The notes under the pieces are model-generated. The model was not told where the DNA came from and ran no database searches. It saw only the letters and a program-made list of their open reading frames with translations. From positions 2,474-66,473 of the forward strand of contig CAZKMB010000005.1 in assembly GCA_964553965.1 (NCBI GenBank): a stretch of 64,000 nt of DNA. Direction: 5' to 3'. This document shows positions 42,342-52,016 of this stretch, one piece after another. This DNA is from an uncultured Bacteroides sp. (GTDB lineage: Bacteria > Bacillota > Clostridia > Lachnospirales > Lachnospiraceae). Position numbers and translations under genes: made by a program. Each line of letters opens with the position of its first letter. Position 1 is the stretch's first letter.

Positions 42342-42370
42342 TTCAAAATTATAATACTTTGTGTTATAAT
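42342..42370 (+). promoter_or_regulatory. Putative sigma-A promoter of the four-gene unknown operon
   Basis: TTCAAA-N17-TATAAT with extended -10 TG. Confidence 0.5.
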
Positions 42371-42449
42371 GTACTTTGTGGTAAAATACATATATTTATT
42401 ATAACATTCAAACGAATAATATCAAGTTTAAATTGCGGTGAGGAAACAG

Positions 42450-45400
42450 ATGAAGGGTATCGTTGAACATTATGCCAAAGGTGAATTTCAAATTGACAGA
42501 CCAAAGGTTATAATATCAGAAAAGTTTTTAAAACTTAATATTGAATCCGGAACAGAGTACAAGGGCAGTTTCAGTGTAAGCAGTACCAATGATCATGTAA
42601 TAAAGGCTATGGTTTATGATAGCAGATATATGCTTCGTTTTGAAAACCACACCTTTATCAGCAGAAAGTTTGATGTGAATTACACTTTTGATGCAACCTG
42701 TCTGGAAGCCGGTAAAAACTATAAAGGACACATAAGTATCATAACAGATGGCGGCGAGTTTAAGATTATGTATGATATCGATATAACCACGCCGTATGTT
42801 AATTACAATGATAACAAGATAGATGACTTATTCAAATTTGCTACTCTGGCTGAGAGTAACTGGTCTGAGGCTGCAAAAATATTCGTAAGGGATGACTTTA
42901 AAAGAACATTTATCGACAGAGATACCATGACAAAACAGATTTACGGCAGTCTTCTGGAAAGCCATTCCGTTAATCAGGCTTTGGAGGAGTATCTGGTGTA
43001 TGTCCATAAAAAGCGTGCCCTTACGCTTTCCGTCGCCAAAGCTAAGATAAATGTGGAGATGCCTACGGAATTATCTAAGATATCCGTAAACATAAGCAAG
43101 AATACATGGGGATATACCAACTCTACTGTAAAGTCCATGGCAGACTTTATTATTCCCGCACGAAAAAATATAACAAGCTCTGATTTTGTGGGCAACAGCT
43201 TTTTGCTCGATGTACTTATTTCCCCGGAGAATGTTCCGGAGGGAGTTACCTCGGGCAAGATAATTATTGAAAATATATATCAGGTTATTGAGGTTGAAAT
43301 CAATCTGTCAAAACCTAACGCAAAGAGTATTGTTTCTCCAAAAACAGGAAATATGAATCATATGATTAAGCTTAATACGACTAAACTGGTTAAAGCTTAT
43401 CTTGATTATCGCATGGACAGACTTCCGCTTAAGGAGTATGTGTCGAGAACACTTTTTGCATTCAATAATCTGTGCCGCTATGTGCCTGAGGAAGACCTTT
43501 ACAGGCTGGGAACCATGCATATGAATATTATGCAGGGGGAAGTGGAAAAGGTTGAGCAGGAGTTTATGCGTATAGAAGCGGATGTGGACAACTCACTTAT
43601 GGGTCCGAAACAGATGTGTTATCACGCCTATCTGAAGGCTATGATGGACAAAGATGCGGAAACTATTGAAAAAGCCAAGAATATGATAAAACGTTACTTC
43701 AGAACTGAGGAAGATAAAATATTTTATTTCTGGCTGCTGCTCTTTATTGATGAGATGTATCAGGAAGACAACAACTGTCTTTACAGAGAGATAAAAAATC
43801 TCTATGAGCAGGGATTTAACAGCCCTATTATGTATCTTGAGCTGTGCGAAATCCTCAATAACAACCCGCTCTTGCTGAAACGTATAACAGACGTGGAGAT
43901 TATAGCCATAAGATGGGGTCTCAGACATAAGTATGTTTCCGATGAGGTGATTGACGAATTTATAAGACTGGCAGGTTCTTTTAAGGAATTTGACACAAAG
44001 ATATTCGGTATCATGGAGGCTATTTATGACAAAAATAAGAGTGTGGAAGTGTTAAAGAGTATCTGTTCCATGCTCATTGGTGCAAATAAACTGGAATACA
44101 GGTATCACAGATTTTATCGCGATGCTGTGGATGCATCCCTGAAATTTATTGGTCTCAATGAATGTTTTGTAAAGAGTATGAATTTTTCAAGGTATGACCT
44201 TATTCCGCAGTCCGTACTCATGTACCTGAACTATAAGAATACTCTTACAGAGAAAGAACTGGCGTATCTCTATGCCAATGTTATATATAACAAGTCCCAG
44301 CATATGAAGGTTTATCATGAATATGTAACAACTATGCAGGACTTTATGGAAAATATGATTATAAAGGGAAAGGTAAGTGATGACCTTACCGTTCTGTATG
44401 ATGAATTTCTTGATCCTGACACGGTTAATCCTTTGTATGCATCAAAGCTTATTAATATAATTTTCAGACGTAAGCTTGTGTGCTTTAACAAGGGTGTACG
44501 GGCAGTTATTGTCACACATCAGGAGCTGCAGGAAGTCCAGAGAGTACCTATTGTAAATGGCGAGGCGTATGTGGAGATTCTTTCTAATTCAGCGTCCATT
44601 ATATTTGAGGATGGCGCCGGAAACAGGTATGCTGGTTCAATTCCTTACAGACTTGAGAGGATTGTGGATGAAAAAGCGTACATGAAAATCTGCTGCCAGT
44701 ACAGTCCGAGAGATTACAGAGTGCTTCTTCACAATTATGAAAAACTGGGTGATTTTACATATAAACGCGCAATTGAGGTAAATGCCGCCAGAGACATAGT
44801 TAATTGTGAAGAAATATCATATGATTACAAGCAGCAGGCATATTTGAATATCATTGAATATTACCATGAAAACCTTGATGCAGATGTACTTACCAAGTAT
44901 TTGGGGAAACTGGATATAGAGTATCTCAATCATGCCAACGCCAGAACCATAATTGCATACATGGTTGATATGAATATGTTTGACAAGGCATTTCAGTCGG
45001 TTAAGCTCTATGGCTTTGATGAGATTGATTCGGAAGAACTTTACAGACTGGCAAATTATGGTGTGGAGGATTCCAATGGTTTCCTGAATGAGGACCTTAT
45101 GGCAATTTGTATTCATCTGTATAAGATGGGTAAGGTTAATGAGCGTATTTTAGTCTATATAATGAATAACTTTAAGGGAGATTTAGATGAGCTTGCGGGA
45201 CTCTTTAAGACTGTCCGCAACCGAATAAAAGATATATCTCTCCTGGCGGAAAATACATTGGCACAGATGATGTTCTCCATGGGAAATGTTGAGTATATAT
45301 ATGACATATTCTCTGCTTACTACAGCGGAAGAAGTCGTGGATTGGTTGTGAAAGCATTTCTCAGATTTGCAGCAAGAAATTATCTTATTATGGATGTACA

Positions 45401-46016
45401 GACACCGGGAAGCCTGTTTGACTGTCTCTACCTCGAAACCATGAAAGGTAATATTGATGATGAGATATCGCGTATGGCATTGCTTTTACATTTCAGTAAG
45501 ATGGACAGATATACAGAGGATCAGAAAGAGTGGATTTGTCTCAACGTAGGAAGATTTATGGATGCCGGAAAAATCCTGCCGTTTTATAAGAGCTTCAAGT
45601 CATTTATAAAGCTCCCACAGGATGTATTTCTTAAGACATATCTTATCTACAAGGGTGAGCCGTCAAAACAGATAATGGTAAGATACGCCTTTGATACCGG
45701 CTCAAGACAGAGTCTCACTTATAAGACAGCCCGTATAGATGAGATGATACCGGGGATGTACGTCAAGGAATTTGTTATTTTCCACGGTGAGAGAATTGTA
45801 TATACTGTGGAAGAGGACAACGATGGTATATCCTATGTTGTTGAAAGTGAGTCACTTAAGACAAAGGCATTTAACAAGAAGGATAAGAACAGATTTGAGA
45901 TTATAAACAGCATGCTTGTTAATCAGGAAATGCGGGAGGATAATGAGCTGTTAGAAACACTGGATGTTTATTTAAATACAGTTCACTTATTTGAAGAGAA
46001 TCTTTCGATTCTATAG
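42450..46016 (+). CDS. Large conserved hypothetical protein (recalled as DUF5717-type): beta-rich N-terminal domains, long helical-repeat body, beta-rich C-terminus
   Basis: 1188-aa uninterrupted ORF; no catalytic motif recognised; DUF name from memory only. Confidence 0.75.
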   Translation: MKGIVEHYAKGEFQIDRPKVIISEKFLKLNIESGTEYKGSFSVSSTNDHVIKAMVYDSRYMLRFENHTFISRKFDVNYTFDATCLEAGKNYKGHISIITDGGEFKIMYDIDITTPYVNYNDNKIDDLFKFATLAESNWSEAAKIFVRDDFKRTFIDRDTMTKQIYGSLLESHSVNQALEEYLVYVHKKRALTLSVAKAKINVEMPTELSKISVNISKNTWGYTNSTVKSMADFIIPARKNITSSDFVGNSFLLDVLISPENVPEGVTSGKIIIENIYQVIEVEINLSKPNAKSIVSPKTGNMNHMIKLNTTKLVKAYLDYRMDRLPLKEYVSRTLFAFNNLCRYVPEEDLYRLGTMHMNIMQGEVEKVEQEFMRIEADVDNSLMGPKQMCYHAYLKAMMDKDAETIEKAKNMIKRYFRTEEDKIFYFWLLLFIDEMYQEDNNCLYREIKNLYEQGFNSPIMYLELCEILNNNPLLLKRITDVEIIAIRWGLRHKYVSDEVIDEFIRLAGSFKEFDTKIFGIMEAIYDKNKSVEVLKSICSMLIGANKLEYRYHRFYRDAVDASLKFIGLNECFVKSMNFSRYDLIPQSVLMYLNYKNTLTEKELAYLYANVIYNKSQHMKVYHEYVTTMQDFMENMIIKGKVSDDLTVLYDEFLDPDTVNPLYASKLINIIFRRKLVCFNKGVRAVIVTHQELQEVQRVPIVNGEAYVEILSNSASIIFEDGAGNRYAGSIPYRLERIVDEKAYMKICCQYSPRDYRVLLHNYEKLGDFTYKRAIEVNAARDIVNCEEISYDYKQQAYLNIIEYYHENLDADVLTKYLGKLDIEYLNHANARTIIAYMVDMNMFDKAFQSVKLYGFDEIDSEELYRLANYGVEDSNGFLNEDLMAICIHLYKMGKVNERILVYIMNNFKGDLDELAGLFKTVRNRIKDISLLAENTLAQMMFSMGNVEYIYDIFSAYYSGRSRGLVVKAFLRFAARNYLIMDVQTPGSLFDCLYLETMKGNIDDEISRMALLLHFSKMDRYTEDQKEWICLNVGRFMDAGKILPFYKSFKSFIKLPQDVFLKTYLIYKGEPSKQIMVRYAFDTGSRQSLTYKTARIDEMIPGMYVKEFVIFHGERIVYTVEEDNDGISYVVESESLKTKAFNKKDKNRFEIINSMLVNQEMREDNELLETLDVYLNTVHLFEENLSIL

Positions 46017-46031
46017 TGTTAGGAGGAAGTT

Positions 46032-47285
46032 ATGGCAGAAGCATATTACATAGGCATGGACCTGTGTTCCGACTCCACACAGATAAGTTTTTATAACGAT
46101 ATCAAAAGAGAGCCGGAAACTGTAAACCAACTCAATAATAAAGAAACATATATGATGCCTAACATTTTATTTTACAGTATGGCTACCGGAGACTGGTATG
46201 TGGGTTCGGAGGCATCGGAGGCAAGATTTAAGGAAGAAGGAGTAATTCTTGACGAGCTCTACAAAAATGCCAGAAATGAAGATTTGGTTGATGTTGACGG
46301 TGTGAAGTACAGCTATAAGCAGTTGTTTTTGCTCATGCTTAAGATGCACATAAATTCATTTTTGTACAGGTATGAGGGGGCTACCGTAAAGCGACTGGTT
46401 ATAACCATACCTGAATACAACAAGGATTTATTCAAGGTGTTGTCCGAGCTTTACAGGGAGCTTGACGTACCTGAGGAATGTATAAGGATAACCAGCCATC
46501 TGGACAGCGGTTTGTATTATATATTTAATCAGAGCAGTGATTTATGGGTGAACAGCGTGGCTTTGTTCGATTATAATATCGAGGGTCTTCACTATTACCG
46601 CATTGATATAAGCAGAGGTAAGACACCGGAGGTTATCAGCGTGACCCATGAGGATTATTCTACCCAGTTTAACATGGCTCTTTTTGCGGGGGATAACATC
46701 TTGATGGATGTCACTTTCGCCAAGATTGTTGAGTATGAGATGAAAAAAACTTATATTTCTTCCGTGTTCCTTACAGGGTTAGGCTTTTCCGAAAAATGGA
46801 TGAACAAATCACGAAATATGTTGTGTCAGGGAAGAAGGGTTTTTGCCGGACAAAATATATATACAAAAGGAGCCTGCTACAAGGCAGTAGGCGGTGAGTA
46901 TGAAGAGTTTTACAGAAGATTTTTTGTGGAGACTAAGGAAAATGTTGTGTTTGATGTAGGCATATCAAGCGGTGACGAGGAGGATAAATTTATTCCTATT
47001 GCCCTTGGCGGAAAGCAGTGGTACAACATTAAGGGTAAGATACATGTAATTCTTGATGACACAGACAAAATCACGATTGTTTACCGGAGCAGGATCTCAG
47101 ATAACGAAATTAGAGAAGTTGTGAAACTGCATGGTATTCCGAAACGTCCGAATAAAACCTCTAAATTTTCAGTGGAGGTGGAATTCGAGGACCCTCACAG
47201 AGGAGCAGTTATCATAAGGGATGTTGGGTTTGGAAAACTTTTTCCTACCACCAACAAGATATATCGCAAGGAGTTTGAGGTATAA
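46032..47285 (+). CDS. Degenerate Hsp70/DnaK-like protein (recalled as DUF5716-type)
   Basis: Ordered Hsp70-like motifs 'IGMDL', 'PNILFY..WYVGSEA', 'LVITIPEY', 'LFDY', 'VFLTG', 'LHGIPKRP...VEVEF...IIRDVGFG'; glycine phosphate loops lost. Confidence 0.65.
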   Translation: MAEAYYIGMDLCSDSTQISFYNDIKREPETVNQLNNKETYMMPNILFYSMATGDWYVGSEASEARFKEEGVILDELYKNARNEDLVDVDGVKYSYKQLFLLMLKMHINSFLYRYEGATVKRLVITIPEYNKDLFKVLSELYRELDVPEECIRITSHLDSGLYYIFNQSSDLWVNSVALFDYNIEGLHYYRIDISRGKTPEVISVTHEDYSTQFNMALFAGDNILMDVTFAKIVEYEMKKTYISSVFLTGLGFSEKWMNKSRNMLCQGRRVFAGQNIYTKGACYKAVGGEYEEFYRRFFVETKENVVFDVGISSGDEEDKFIPIALGGKQWYNIKGKIHVILDDTDKITIVYRSRISDNEIREVVKLHGIPKRPNKTSKFSVEVEFEDPHRGAVIIRDVGFGKLFPTTNKIYRKEFEV

Positions 47286-48118
47286 TGTCAAAGATAATTT
47301 TATGTACAAGTAAAGAAGCATCCCATCCGTTTATTTTCTTAAATACCAAGGTGGAGATAAATAACTATGAGGAACTTTGTTTTTATATATACAATAATAC
47401 AGTTCTTATAAGTAAGTCTGCACTTTCGGAGAAACTGTTTGACTGGATAAGGGACGAGCTTGATATGCCGGAGCTTGCGGCTAAGCTTGTAACCATGTCT
47501 AACAAAACATCCTTTGCCCAGGATTTGTTGGTGGAAATTCTCAATGCCGGTGATTATTATGAACCGGAGGAGATAAAGACTTATGTGGAGGCATGGCAGA
47601 AGTACAGGAGACTTACTGCAAGCCAGAGAAAGAAACTTAAAGCTGATGGGTATCTCGGTTACAGAAGATATATCAAGGCTGCATCCATATATGATGATAT
47701 AATAGCAAATCAGGAGGACATAACCGATAAGGCGTTTCTTGGAAATGTATATCACAACAGAGCTGTTGCCGCGGCAAATAATCTTGATACAGAGGATGCA
47801 AAGGCGTATTTTCTTAAGGCATTTGAGCTGAACAACAACGAGGAATCACTTAGAGGGTATCTCATTGTGTTTGCTGCAGGAAATGATTCCGCAACCATTA
47901 GGCAGGAAATGCGAAAATACGATTTGGACGATGACAATTTTGAGAATCTTATGCTGGAGATTGGAGATTCAAACGAAGATGTCAGGGAAATGACTATATT
48001 TTCCATGCTGCAGAGAGCGGTATACAATCGAATGAATAAGGATATGATTGATTACGATAAGAGGATGGATATTATCCTGGGACAACTAAAGGACGAATTT
48101 AGGGAGCAGGCGATTTAA
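47285..48118 (+). CDS. TPR-containing hypothetical protein
   Basis: 'ADGYLGYRRYIKAASIY', 'GNVYHNRAVAAANNLDTEDAKAYFLKAFELN'; TAATG coupling on both sides. Confidence 0.7.
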   Translation: MSKIILCTSKEASHPFIFLNTKVEINNYEELCFYIYNNTVLISKSALSEKLFDWIRDELDMPELAAKLVTMSNKTSFAQDLLVEILNAGDYYEPEEIKTYVEAWQKYRRLTASQRKKLKADGYLGYRRYIKAASIYDDIIANQEDITDKAFLGNVYHNRAVAAANNLDTEDAKAYFLKAFELNNNEESLRGYLIVFAAGNDSATIRQEMRKYDLDDDNFENLMLEIGDSNEDVREMTIFSMLQRAVYNRMNKDMIDYDKRMDIILGQLKDEFREQAI

Positions 48119-49344
48119 TGGGTTTTATCAGCAAAATCAAAGATTACCTTAATGAGGAAGAAGAGGTAACCACAGTTAAGAGGGAAAGCCTGTTTAAAAG
48201 ACGCAGAAGAAAAACTGCGGATGAAGATAATACAGACAGAGGGGACTCTCAGGTTAAGGTAAAAAAACGTATGGAAATCGAGAGAAAGACTGTTCAGGAT
48301 TTTTGTGAGCAGTTGGTTGATGTGTCTTTCCATACTGAAGAAATAAAAAATGAATACAGATTGGTTACGGGGTATCTCACTGACATTCAGCGTATAGAGG
48401 AGCTGCCGGTGGATATGGCAAATCACATCATAAGGATATCTGAAAGAATCGAAATGCTTGACAAAGACAGGGAAACATATTTACAATCAGAGAATCTCCT
48501 GTCTATGGAACAGTATAACACACTGAGTAACTATGAGGATGATGTGGTGGAAACCATAAAAAATCTCAACGAAATGGAGAGCAGAGATACTGCACTGAGA
48601 AGTGATATGAGTTATCTTGAGGGCGAAAAAGAAGACTTGAGATATATGCGTGATGAGTACAACGGTATGATTTCCAGGATAAGGGTGGTTATGATTACCT
48701 TTATGTCCGTTGCTCTTGTGACCTGTGCAGGATTGATGATTTATGCCACCATAACCAAAAACAATATTACCGTTTTTGCATTAGGTGTAGCGGCTGCTGC
48801 ATTGCTTGGTTTCGCCGTGGCATATGCAAAGTACATGAACCTGAAAAGAGATATAAGGGATTATGATGCCAAGCTGAAAAGAGCAGTATCCCTTTTGAAC
48901 AAAGTTAAGGTAAAGTACATTAACAATACCAATACATTGGATTATATATACGAAAAATATGGCGTTAATTCCAGTCAGGAGCTTTCCTATCAGTGGGAGC
49001 AGTACAATACAATGGTCAAGGATGCTAAAAAGTATACCAAAACCAATGCCGAGTTTAAGGACAGGTGCGATGAACTTGTAAATATTATGAAAAAAATCGG
49101 TGTTGAGGATCCTTTTGTATGGCCAAAACAGACCAATGCCATTATAGACAGACGGGAAATGGTTGAGATAAAGCACAGCCTTAACGTAAGAAGACAGAAA
49201 CTGCGGGAGAGGCTGGCAACCTGTGAAAAAATCAGGGAAAACGCGCAGGTTGCGCTGAGGGCTGCCGTCTCGGATAATCCCGGTATGGAGGGCTATATAA
49301 CAGATATGTTATCCCCTTACAATATTACCATCGACTTAAAATAA
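48118..49344 (+). CDS. Coiled-coil protein with a central two-helix transmembrane hairpin
   Basis: Heptad-rich halves flanking 'VVMITFMSVALVTCAGLMIYA' and 'ITVFALGVAAAALLGFAVAY'. Confidence 0.75.
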   Translation: MGFISKIKDYLNEEEEVTTVKRESLFKRRRRKTADEDNTDRGDSQVKVKKRMEIERKTVQDFCEQLVDVSFHTEEIKNEYRLVTGYLTDIQRIEELPVDMANHIIRISERIEMLDKDRETYLQSENLLSMEQYNTLSNYEDDVVETIKNLNEMESRDTALRSDMSYLEGEKEDLRYMRDEYNGMISRIRVVMITFMSVALVTCAGLMIYATITKNNITVFALGVAAAALLGFAVAYAKYMNLKRDIRDYDAKLKRAVSLLNKVKVKYINNTNTLDYIYEKYGVNSSQELSYQWEQYNTMVKDAKKYTKTNAEFKDRCDELVNIMKKIGVEDPFVWPKQTNAIIDRREMVEIKHSLNVRRQKLRERLATCEKIRENAQVALRAAVSDNPGMEGYITDMLSPYNITIDLK

Positions 49345-49373
49345 TTTTCATTATACATTGGAGGATTTAAAAT

Positions 49374-52016
49374 ATGTCTAAGGAATTAGAAAAAAACTAC
49401 AACCCTTCCGAAATAGAAGGAAGACTTTATGATAAGTGGGTTGCCAACAGGTATTTTCATGCTGAGGTGGACAGGAGTAAAAAACCTTTTACTATAGTTA
49501 TGCCGCCTCCAAATATTACAGGACAGCTTCACATGGGACACGCTCTCGACAATACGATGCAGGATATTCTTATCAGATTTAAGAGAATGCAGGGCTACAA
49601 TGCTCTTTGGCAGCCCGGCACAGACCATGCGGCAATAGCAACAGAGGTAAAGATTATAGAACATTTGAGAAGTCAGGGAATTGAAAAGAACGACCTTGGA
49701 AGAGAGGGATTCCTGAAGAGAGCCTGGGAGTGGAAGGACGAGTACGGCGGACGGATTGTAAATCAGCTAAAGAAACTCGGCTCATCAGCAGACTGGGACA
49801 GAGAGCGTTTTACAATGGATGAGGGAAATAACGCTGCTGTCACTGAGGTATTCACAAAGTTATATGATAAAGGATACATTTACAAAGGCTCACGTATAGG
49901 TAACTGGTGTCCTGTATGTAAGACATCCATATCTGATGCAGAGGTTATCCATGAGGAGCAGGACGGATTTTTCTGGCACATTAATTATCCTGTTGCCGGA
50001 GAGGAAGGCAGATTTGTTGAGATAGCTACAACAAGACCGGAAACACTTTTAGGTGACAGTGCGGTAGCCGTTAATCCCGACGATGAAAGATATAAAGATA
50101 TTGTGGGCAAAAAGGTTATCCTTCCTCTGGTAAATAAGGAAATTCCGGTTATAGCGGATCACTACGTTGACATGGAATTCGGTACAGGTGTGGTTAAGAT
50201 TACACCTGCTCATGACCCTAACGATTTTGAGGTTGGCAAGAGACATAACCTTGAAGAAATAAATATTATGAATGACGATGCAACCATAAATTCTCTTGGC
50301 GGAAAATATGCAGGTATGGACAGATATGAAGCAAGAAAAGCCATGGTAGAAGATTTGGATGCTCTTGGTCTCCTTGTCAAGATTGTACCTCATAAGCATA
50401 TGGTTGGTACACATGACAGATGTAAGACCACTGTAGAACCTTTGGTAAAACCACAGTGGTATGTTAAAATGTCAGAGATGGCAAAGCCTGCCAAGGAGGC
50501 TGTTGAAAAGGGAGAACTTAAACTCATACCTGAGCGTATGAACAAAACATACTATAACTGGCTTGATAATATAAGAGACTGGTGTATTTCAAGACAGCTC
50601 TGGTGGGGACACAGAATACCGGCATGGTATTGTCAGGATTGTGGTGAGATTATTGTTGCAAAGGAAACACCTTGTACCTGTCCTAAGTGTCAATCATCTA
50701 ATCTTAAACAGGATGAGGATACTCTTGATACGTGGTTTTCTTCGGCACTCTGGCCATTTTCAACTCTGGGTTGGCCTGAAAAGAGTGAGGATTATGATTA
50801 TTTCTTCCCTACTGATGTGCTTGTTACAGGATACGACATTATTTTCTTCTGGGTTATCAGAATGGTATTTTCATCCATCGAGCAGACCGGAAAGCTTCCG
50901 TTCCACACAGTTCTTTTCCATGGACTTGTAAGGGATGACCAGGGAAGAAAGATGAGTAAATCTCTTGGAAACGGTATAGACCCTCTTGAGGTAATTGAAA
51001 AATATGGTGCAGATGCGCTCAGATTTACCCTTATCACAGGAAATGCTCCGGGTAATGATATGCGTTTTTACTGGGAGAGAGTTGAGGCGAGCCGAAATTT
51101 TGCAAACAAGATATGGAACGCTTCAAGATTCATACTTATGAACATTGAGAAAGCTGACTCATCAAATGTAGATTTGAGTAAGCTCACAATAGCTGACAGA
51201 TGGATTCTTTCTAAAATGAATGACCTTATAGCAGAGGTTACTGACAATATGGAAAAATACGAGCTGGGTATAGCTGTATCTAAGCTTTATGATTTCCTCT
51301 GGGAAGAATTCTGCGACTGGTACATTGAGATGGTTAAGCCAAGACTTTGGAATGATGAAGATGAGACAAAGGGAGCAGCGCTCTGGACACTGAAAACCGT
51401 TTTAATCAACGGACTTAAACTTCTTCATCCATATATGCCGTTTGTCACAGAAGAGATATTCTGCTCACTCTCAGATGAGGAATCAATAATGATATCAAGC
51501 TGGCCGGTATATGAAAAGAAATACGATTTCAAAGCCGATGAGGCAGCGGTTGATAAGATTAAGGAAGCAGTCCGTAATATAAGAAATATCCGAAGTGAGA
51601 TGAATGTTGCACCAAGCAAAAAAGCTACAGTATATGTTGTTTCACCTAAGCAGGAAATAAGAGACATATTTGAAGCATCAGCAAGCTTTTTCGGAACACT
51701 GGCTTATGCAGGAGAAGTATTTGTTCAGGAAGATAAGACCGGAATTGCCGATGATGCCGTTTCCGTTGTTATACACGATGCAACAGTTTATATGCCGTTT
51801 GCAGAGCTTGTGGATATTGAGAAGGAAATAGAGAGACTTACCAAGGAAAAAGTGAGACTTGAGGGTGAAATAAAACGTGCATCAGGTATGCTCGCAAACC
51901 CTAAGTTTGTGGATAAGGCTCCGGCTGCCAAGGTTGAGGAAGAAAAAGCAAAGCTCCGGAAATATACAGAGACTTTGGAACAGGTAACAGAGAGATTGTC
52001 ACAGCTTCAGGCGTAA
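49374..52016 (+). CDS. valS: Valine--tRNA ligase
   Basis: HIGH-like '[15 protein letters not shown]', 'KMSKS', '[14 protein letters not shown]'. Confidence 0.98.

Follow-up and report, generated by a model that had tools for sequence, protein, structure and literature searches.

A degenerate Hsp70 homologue and its repeat-protein partners in a Lachnospiraceae operon: a candidate non-catalytic scaffold complex

The closest described counterparts of the locus reported here are Hsp70 machines and a few computationally surveyed systems that contain Hsp70-like parts. The canonical Hsp70 system (DnaK/GrpE/DnaJ) is built around an actin-like nucleotide-binding domain (NBD) followed by the β-sandwich of the substrate-binding domain (SBD-β), while Ssz1 of the yeast ribosome-associated complex, as well as Hsp110/Sse1, represents a lid-poor, non-cycling Hsp70 relative employed as a structural subunit alongside active Hsp70s. 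In addition, Hsp70/GrpE/tetratricopeptide repeat (TPR)/Ig-repeat variants were disclosed in a computational survey of the GAP1-N2 DO-GTPase systems (Kaur et al. 2020, PMC7159879), and a second computational survey, that of the CoCoNuTs, described CnuD as a degenerate Hsp70 plus HEAT protein (Bell et al. 2024, PMC11090510). Herein, an operon of four genes, termed g1 to g4, is analysed, which lies at positions 42450-49344 of a window of 64,000 nucleotides, i.e. the whole stretch of DNA analysed, from an uncultured member of the Lachnospiraceae (assembly GCA_964553965.1, contig CAZKMB010000005.1, positions 2,474 to 66,473 of the forward strand). Lachnospiraceae are among the most abundant bacteria of the human and animal gut. 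It is proposed, at a probability of roughly 55%, that its products form a non-catalytic scaffold complex of Hsp70 descent.

The protein encoded by g2 is homologous to Hsp70: it shares its ancestry with DnaK and has retained the folds of both the NBD and SBD-β. It is matched by Pfam PF18980 (DUF5716_C) at 316 bits, with a curated cut-off of 34.7 (E=2e-94), and no match to Pfam PF00012 (HSP70) was obtained at E<=0.1. When the single sequence was searched against the PDB, DnaK was the only match and a weak one (E=0.077), whereas a profile built from 69 diverse g2 homologues matched NBD lobe I of DnaK at E=1e-7, and the alignment of the same profile pairs LPxRPxKTTRL...DxGFGE with the segment GIPPAPRG...KDKGTGK of the DnaK SBD-β. 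The AlphaFold model (predicted local distance difference test, pLDDT, 94.6; predicted template modelling score, pTM, 0.91) is confidently that of an Hsp70 NBD plus SBD-β. Its best Foldseek match is the lid-truncated DnaK 7kru_A (E=2e-20), the top 50 are exclusively Hsp70, Hsp110, or Ssz1 chains, and the Ssz1 chain 6sr6_C is matched at E=6e-18. The domain arrangement is nearer to docked DnaK (7kru, TM-score 0.58, root-mean-square deviation 8) than to the undocked form (2kho, TM-score 0.43). An earlier sequence-only reading of this locus had aligned the protein with DnaK motif by motif and expected an actin/Hsp70 fold; the same motif pairings were reproduced by HMMER and MAFFT alignments, and the profile and fold matches place the resemblance far outside chance.

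The degeneracy of g2 was mapped by aligning it with canonical DnaK as well as the Hsp70 paralogues of a larger, related operon of outgroup bacteria, which is referred to below as the extended operon. Across the DUF5716 family, the phosphate-1 Asp (D10) is the only residue of the ATP site that is kept, and the phosphate-1 GTT, K70, E171, the DxGGGT loop, and the adenosine GG motif have given way to variable or replaced residues. Subdomain IIB, approximately 90 residues in DnaK, is deleted, and the protein terminates at SBD-β in the model, so that the α-helical lid (SBD-α) is absent. In contrast with canonical Hsp70, with which its motifs otherwise align position by position, g2 thus possesses neither the ATP-binding loops nor K70, E171, subdomain IIB, or lid, and the operon contains neither a J-protein nor a GrpE. 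The loss of catalytic residues and lid suspected from the sequence was thereby confirmed column by column. Since the residues that are conserved in the g2 family, namely W55, Q167, GxGFxxxW, CxGRRVFxGxN, W330, R372, and DxGFG, are family-specific, their conservation points to contacts with partners rather than to a nucleotide site.

The operon is among the few gene sets that nearly all Lachnospiraceae share and that are missing from the other orders of Clostridia sampled. PF18980 was detected in 196 of 201 Lachnospiraceae genomes, corresponding to 195 of 200 genera and to 164 of the 167 high-quality genomes, nearly always in single copy, and neither PF18980 nor PF18983 occurs in the roughly 290 genomes examined from other orders of the class; these family-level counts rest on the kinship labels of the sampled genomes, and the names that homologues carry show the family to be Lachnospiraceae. 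The genes g1, g2, and g3 are adjacent in 52 of 53 family loci, and g4 follows them in about 21. With its own profile, g4 was found as a single-copy gene in 52 of 121 family genomes (43%), and it adjoins the g1-g3 cluster where coordinates are comparable. The co-occurrence of the genes predicted by the sequence-only reading is therefore seen across the family, but the four-gene system it had described has to be narrowed to a core of three genes with an optional fourth. Because the pattern is near-universal, single-copy, and vertically inherited, it points to a housekeeping cell-biological role instead of defence. The operon genes are under purifying selection (dN 0.11-0.21), and already within the genus the synonymous sites have reached saturation, so that dN/dS can only be bounded. 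As a separate observation, comparison of the window operon with that of locus L007 from a same-genus genome (G153) gave a proportion of synonymous differences of 0.91-0.98, above the saturation expectation of 0.75, from which a systematic shift in codons or GC follows for two genomes that carry the same genus label.

The largest partner, g1, is matched in order by PF18984 (DUF5717_N, 938 bits) and PF18983 (DUF5717, 217 bits), each with a cut-off of 25, and the family names DUF5717 and DUF5716 given in the sequence-only reading proved to be the right ones for g1 and g2. The two β-sandwiches of its N-terminal module match ASH/PapD-like Ig domains in Foldseek (9ijj_L, 1.7e-6; 2qsv, 1e-5). Residues 290-300 that follow, the sole segment with a pLDDT below 50, read as a disordered linker, and the subsequent α-solenoid resembles TPR superhelix scaffolds including Ski3, Ctr9, Naa15, IFT-A, and UNC-45. 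No catalytic domain of g1 was found, and its profile returned no match by sequence against the PDB. In the outgroup operons of loci L029 (L029:17930-18991) and L028 (L028:16742-17929), the N-terminal Ig-like module of the DUF5717 protein is a separate gene, with the split located at the g1 linker.

The protein g3 is composed of a family-specific N-domain (residues 1 to approximately 100), a TPR region (approximately 112-200), and a conserved C-terminal helix. The single sequence yielded a weak TPR match at residues 155-185 (16 bits, below the Pfam cut-off of 27), and the family profile, whose alignment includes canonical 387-aa TPR proteins of outgroups, matches TPR structures strongly; g3 probably holds two or three degenerate TPR repeats. 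The TPR partner expected from the sequence is supported by the homology of g3 to the TPR protein of the extended operon. In L025, L026, and P0152, g2 and g3 are joined in true fusions. A 691-aa protein (P0128) that resembled such a fusion was rejected, since it is g2 with a long acidic low-complexity tail, and the g2 orthologue at L027:8456-10366 measures 636 aa, being longer without being a fusion, as a separate g3 is present.

In g4, conserved helical N- and C-terminal domains flank a central hairpin of two transmembrane helices, which is the membrane anchor that had been anticipated; with the hairpin placed between two helical domains, both ends of the protein should be cytoplasmic. No relative of g4 was detectable when its profile was compared with the PDB, and Pfam gave sub-threshold matches only for g3 and g4. 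Weak RexB-like matches of the hairpin (Pfam E=0.003, PADLOC E=3.5e-4) are probably due to hydrophobic composition and not to homology. NCBIfam and PADLOC scans of the operon proteins provided no further informative match.

The origin of this gene set is illuminated by the outgroups. In the other families of the Lachnospirales, PF18980 matches occur in 84 of 183 genomes, mostly as two adjacent weaker ones, and the loci concerned reveal an operon of 8-9 genes. It begins with the DUF5717 gene, in many cases divided precisely where g1 has its linker, followed by an Hsp70 of about 559 aa, a 630-aa coiled-coil protein with a GrpE end, a 523-aa DUF5716-like Hsp70 (termed A), an Hsp70 of about 546 aa (termed B), an Hsp70 fused to a MIDAS vWA domain, and a 387-aa TPR protein homologous to g3; in two loci (L028 and L033), a g4 homologue and then valS complete the series. 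Carriers include Defluviitalea phaphyphila Alg1 (NZ_JWID01000004.1), metagenome-assembled genomes (MAGs) labelled 'Candidatus Epulonipiscium', and Defluviitaleaceae of termite guts. In the alignment, three of the four Hsp70s retain every catalytic motif, and A is already degenerate, although it still reaches PF00012 with 53 bits. The two operon forms thus share orthologous scaffold, A paralogue, TPR protein, and g4-like protein in the same order, with valS downstream in L028 and L033. The window operon differs from the extended form in having no GrpE, no vWA domain, and none of the three motif-intact Hsp70s; its g1 is one fused protein, g3 is about 110 aa shorter than the corresponding TPR protein, and g2 has additionally lost subdomain IIB. 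In a class-wide protein search for Hsp70-vWA fusions outside the order, only DnaK-type proteins, aligned over residues 3 to approximately 490, appeared among the matches listed.

A maximum-likelihood tree separates the canonical Hsp70s (DnaK, H1, B, and H-vWA) from A plus g2 with a support of 100/100, and within the latter group g2 is monophyletic (100/98) and nested among the A paralogues, with A of locus L028 as its sister. Judged from this topology, g2 is the orthologue of the degenerate A paralogue. Since g2 nests among the A paralogues of the extended operon, the Lachnospiraceae operon would most simply be a reduced derivative of the extended one, which has shed its motors together with the exchange factor and the vWA domain and has kept its structural parts, g4 among them in 43% of genera. 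The system is accordingly uncharacterised but catalogued through its Pfam families, and it has a clear evolutionary history. A full-text literature search on DUF5716 and DUF5717 retrieved no paper on their function, the sole match being unrelated, in agreement with the assumption of the sequence-only reading that these families had no characterised function. At locus L028 itself (G499:C25), which belongs to a sister-family genome, two genes are broken into pairs of open reading frames (ORFs), that for Hsp70-vWA into 198+494 aa and that for the TPR protein into 123+195 aa, and an in-frame stop interrupts one of the Hsp70s, which may reflect motor genes in decay or sequencing errors of the MAG.

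On these grounds, a cytoplasmic assembly in which a solenoid scaffold is combined with a pseudo-Hsp70 and a TPR adaptor is a well-supported architecture. As they are fused in some lineages, g2 and g3 would form a stable pair, which might be seated on the Ig/TPR solenoid of g1, and g4, where it is kept, as in this genome, may tie the assembly to the membrane on its cytoplasmic side. By analogy with Ssz1, g2 could serve as a permanent peptide or partner clamp, or as a docking subunit, rather than as an ATP-driven chaperone, and the ATP-driven step of the ancestor would have been either dropped or supplied in trans by the housekeeping DnaK/GrpE. The analogy has its bounds: Ssz1 binds ATP and pairs with the J-protein zuotin on ribosomes, whereas g2 is accompanied in the window operon by a TPR protein and an Ig/TPR solenoid. 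Neither a J-domain nor an HPD motif was found in any protein of either operon form.

Several points weigh against the scaffold reading. The complex is deduced from synteny and gene fusions, the co-transcription of its genes from their packing, and the direction of the reduction from one tree and the present sampling of families. The loss of the canonical motifs leaves room for nucleotide binding through other residues of g2. Since g4 is dispensable in most genera, tethering to the membrane is not a core feature. Finally, the operon proteins are 22-30% identical between genome pairs whose ValS proteins are 67-76% identical, and thus evolve about three times faster than ValS, a pattern that is also met in conflict systems.

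Among the alternatives, a working chaperone module survives best, although it is unlikely. It supposes that g2, devoid of an ATPase of its own, recruits the housekeeping DnaK/GrpE and acts as an adaptor that brings a specific client to DnaK, whereby DnaK/GrpE would stand in for the private GrpE and for the three dedicated Hsp70s that were lost. In the extended operon, active Hsp70s and a GrpE do accompany the pseudo-Hsp70, the scaffold, and the TPR protein, dnaK is present in all relatives examined, and the Hsp70-binding TPR proteins Hop, CHIP, and SGTA are among the matches of the g3 profile. However, the near-invariant residue of g3 is D121 and the classical carboxylate-clamp Asn is absent, bacterial DnaK has no EEVD tail to be clamped, g2 is short of lobe IIB, the site through which Hsp110-type partners contact Hsp70, neither operon form supplies the J-domain, and a contact with DnaK has no direct support.

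A second alternative assigns a process to the scaffold, namely sporulation, division, or envelope morphogenesis, and it is improbable in the present state of the evidence. Cytoplasmic or membrane scaffolds that evolve fast and are nevertheless retained are typical of such processes, the genome encodes SpoIVA, and valS is located near spoVID in B. subtilis. Nevertheless, PF18980 is present in at least 13 genomes without a SpoIVA match, the presence of g4 is not associated with that of SpoIVA (36/16/42/27, odds ratio 1.45), and the neighbourhoods vary between genera. The link to sporulation that the sequence-only reading had considered was therefore rejected, there being no association for the triad g1-g3 or for g4.

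Defence, also raised in that reading, is very improbable: an Ig-repeat protein fused to TPR, Hsp70, GrpE, and vWA are themes shared with GAP1-N2 variants (PMC7159879), a degenerate Hsp70 NBD/SBD with helical repeats occurs in CoCoNuT CnuD as well (PMC11090510), and the fast evolution and the weak RexB-like match of g4 fit a conflict or anti-phage system, but no DO-GTPase or GAP1 gene was detected in either operon form or in the flanking DNA, McrB-like NxD GTPase and the McrC N-terminal domain (DUF2357) had no Pfam match in either operon, searches for a nuclease or another GTPase in the operons and flanks were negative, no PADLOC model was matched significantly, no effector domain was found, and single-copy, family-wide occurrence in 97% of genera amid housekeeping genes is the opposite of the patchy distribution of these systems and of mobile defence islands.

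The scaffold reading turns two Pfam families into a concrete proposition, that of a dead Hsp70 used as a scaffold. The distribution of the operon, for its part, makes it a clean taxonomic marker and a candidate for cell biology that defines the lineage. Meanwhile, an ancestor-like machine is available for comparison in the culturable Defluviitalea, with three active lidless Hsp70s (one of them fused to vWA), a giant GrpE, and no J-protein. If the reading is true, the known Hsp70 repertoire widens and a case is gained of an ATP-driven machine that decayed into a structural complex. A broader proposition, tentative and with the odds somewhat against it, is that the Lachnospiraceae universally keep a free-standing, ATPase-free pseudo-Hsp70 complex, a bacterial counterpart of the Ssz1-type pseudo-chaperone scaffolds of eukaryotes, which descended from a J-protein-independent multi-Hsp70 machine organised by a scaffold. 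Should this be true, the ancestral machine would join DnaK, HscA, and HscC as another type of prokaryotic Hsp70 system, and the two operon forms would constitute a natural experiment that separates the structural from the motor parts of an Hsp70 machine.

The layout of the locus (Table 1) was read directly and agrees with what had been described from the sequence: four tightly packed, co-directional ORFs of 1188, 417, 277, and 408 aa, a gap of 15 nt between g1 and g2 that contains AGGAGG, and TAATG stop/start overlaps at both g2/g3 and g3/g4. The start of g1 is taken as the ATG at 42450 behind a GAGGA ribosome-binding site (RBS), whereas the ORF lister begins at the GTG at 42438. The promoter candidate named in the sequence-only reading stands as the sole good site upstream of g1, reading TTCAAA-17-TGTTATAAT, but it constitutes weak evidence because such sites are no commoner in the region than in shuffled sequence.

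Table 1. Features of the operon and its surroundings in the window (AF2, AlphaFold model; TM, transmembrane)
Feature	Position	Strand	Description and basis
Promoter-like site upstream of g1	42342..42370	+	TTCAAA-17 nt-TATAAT with TG extension; consensus match only
g1, DUF5717 scaffold protein, 1188 aa	42450..46016	+	PF18984 5e-282, PF18983 3e-64; AF2 pLDDT 86.9
g1 N-terminal module, residues 1-288	42450..43313	+	Ig-like β-sandwich, helical bundle, second β-sandwich; AF2
g1 α-solenoid, residues 299-671 and 741-1061	43344..45632	+	Small β domain (residues 673-737) between the two parts; AF2
g1 C-terminal β domain, residues 1063-1137, and two terminal helices	45636..46010	+	AF2; inside PF18983
g2, DUF5716 pseudo-Hsp70, 417 aa	46032..47285	+	PF18980 2e-94; DnaK profile match; AF2; Foldseek
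g2 degenerate NBD, residues 1-294	46032..46913	+	Without subdomain IIB; motif map
g2 SBD-β-like sandwich, residues 301-417	46932..47282	+	No helical lid; profile alignment; all-β in model
g3, TPR-type protein, 277 aa	47285..48118	+	N-domain, short TPR region, and C-terminal helix
g4, membrane hairpin protein, 408 aa	48118..49344	+	Sequence; conserved N- and C-domain motifs in alignment
g4 two-TM hairpin, residues ~189-238	48682..48831	+	Basic residues on both sides; sequence, alignment
valS, neighbour outside the system	49374..52016	+	Translation; 29-nt gap after g4 (49345-49373)

Downstream, valS has its own RBS in the gap that follows g4, and it is likewise found close downstream in several other loci, outgroups included. 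No terminator-like site was found in this gap, nor was a T-box or another RNA element detected ahead of valS or of g1; a leader without a T-box is unusual for an aminoacyl-tRNA synthetase gene of Firmicutes. As the short gap contains neither a terminator-like site nor a T-box, valS may be co-transcribed with the operon and may depend on its promoter. The genes upstream of g1, an aminotransferase gene and a glycosyltransferase-like gene, are divergent. In general, the operon is flanked by housekeeping genes, including those for the aminotransferase, folate metabolism, and an amino-acid ABC transporter, purC, and valS, which vary between genera.

A PF00012 search and tblastn revealed no dnaK in this assembly, and a full-length dnaJ is missing as well. 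The genes hrcA and grpE are located at the extreme end of contig C27 (C27:42-1731), where grpE ends 41 nt from the edge, and dnaK is present in 30 of 30 relatives; the absence is therefore an assembly gap, and a genome without DnaK was rejected in favour of a break inside the hrcA-grpE-dnaK-dnaJ operon. A second Hsp70-family gene of congeners was likewise set aside, since this genome does not have it and it bears no relation to the operon. In the same-genus genome G698 (L038:2580-7369), it encodes a 564-aa protein and forms a two-gene insertion together with a gene for a 1032-aa protein, located between orthologues of genes that are adjacent here (C9:24999-26609), and the pair may be an accessory Hsp70 module.

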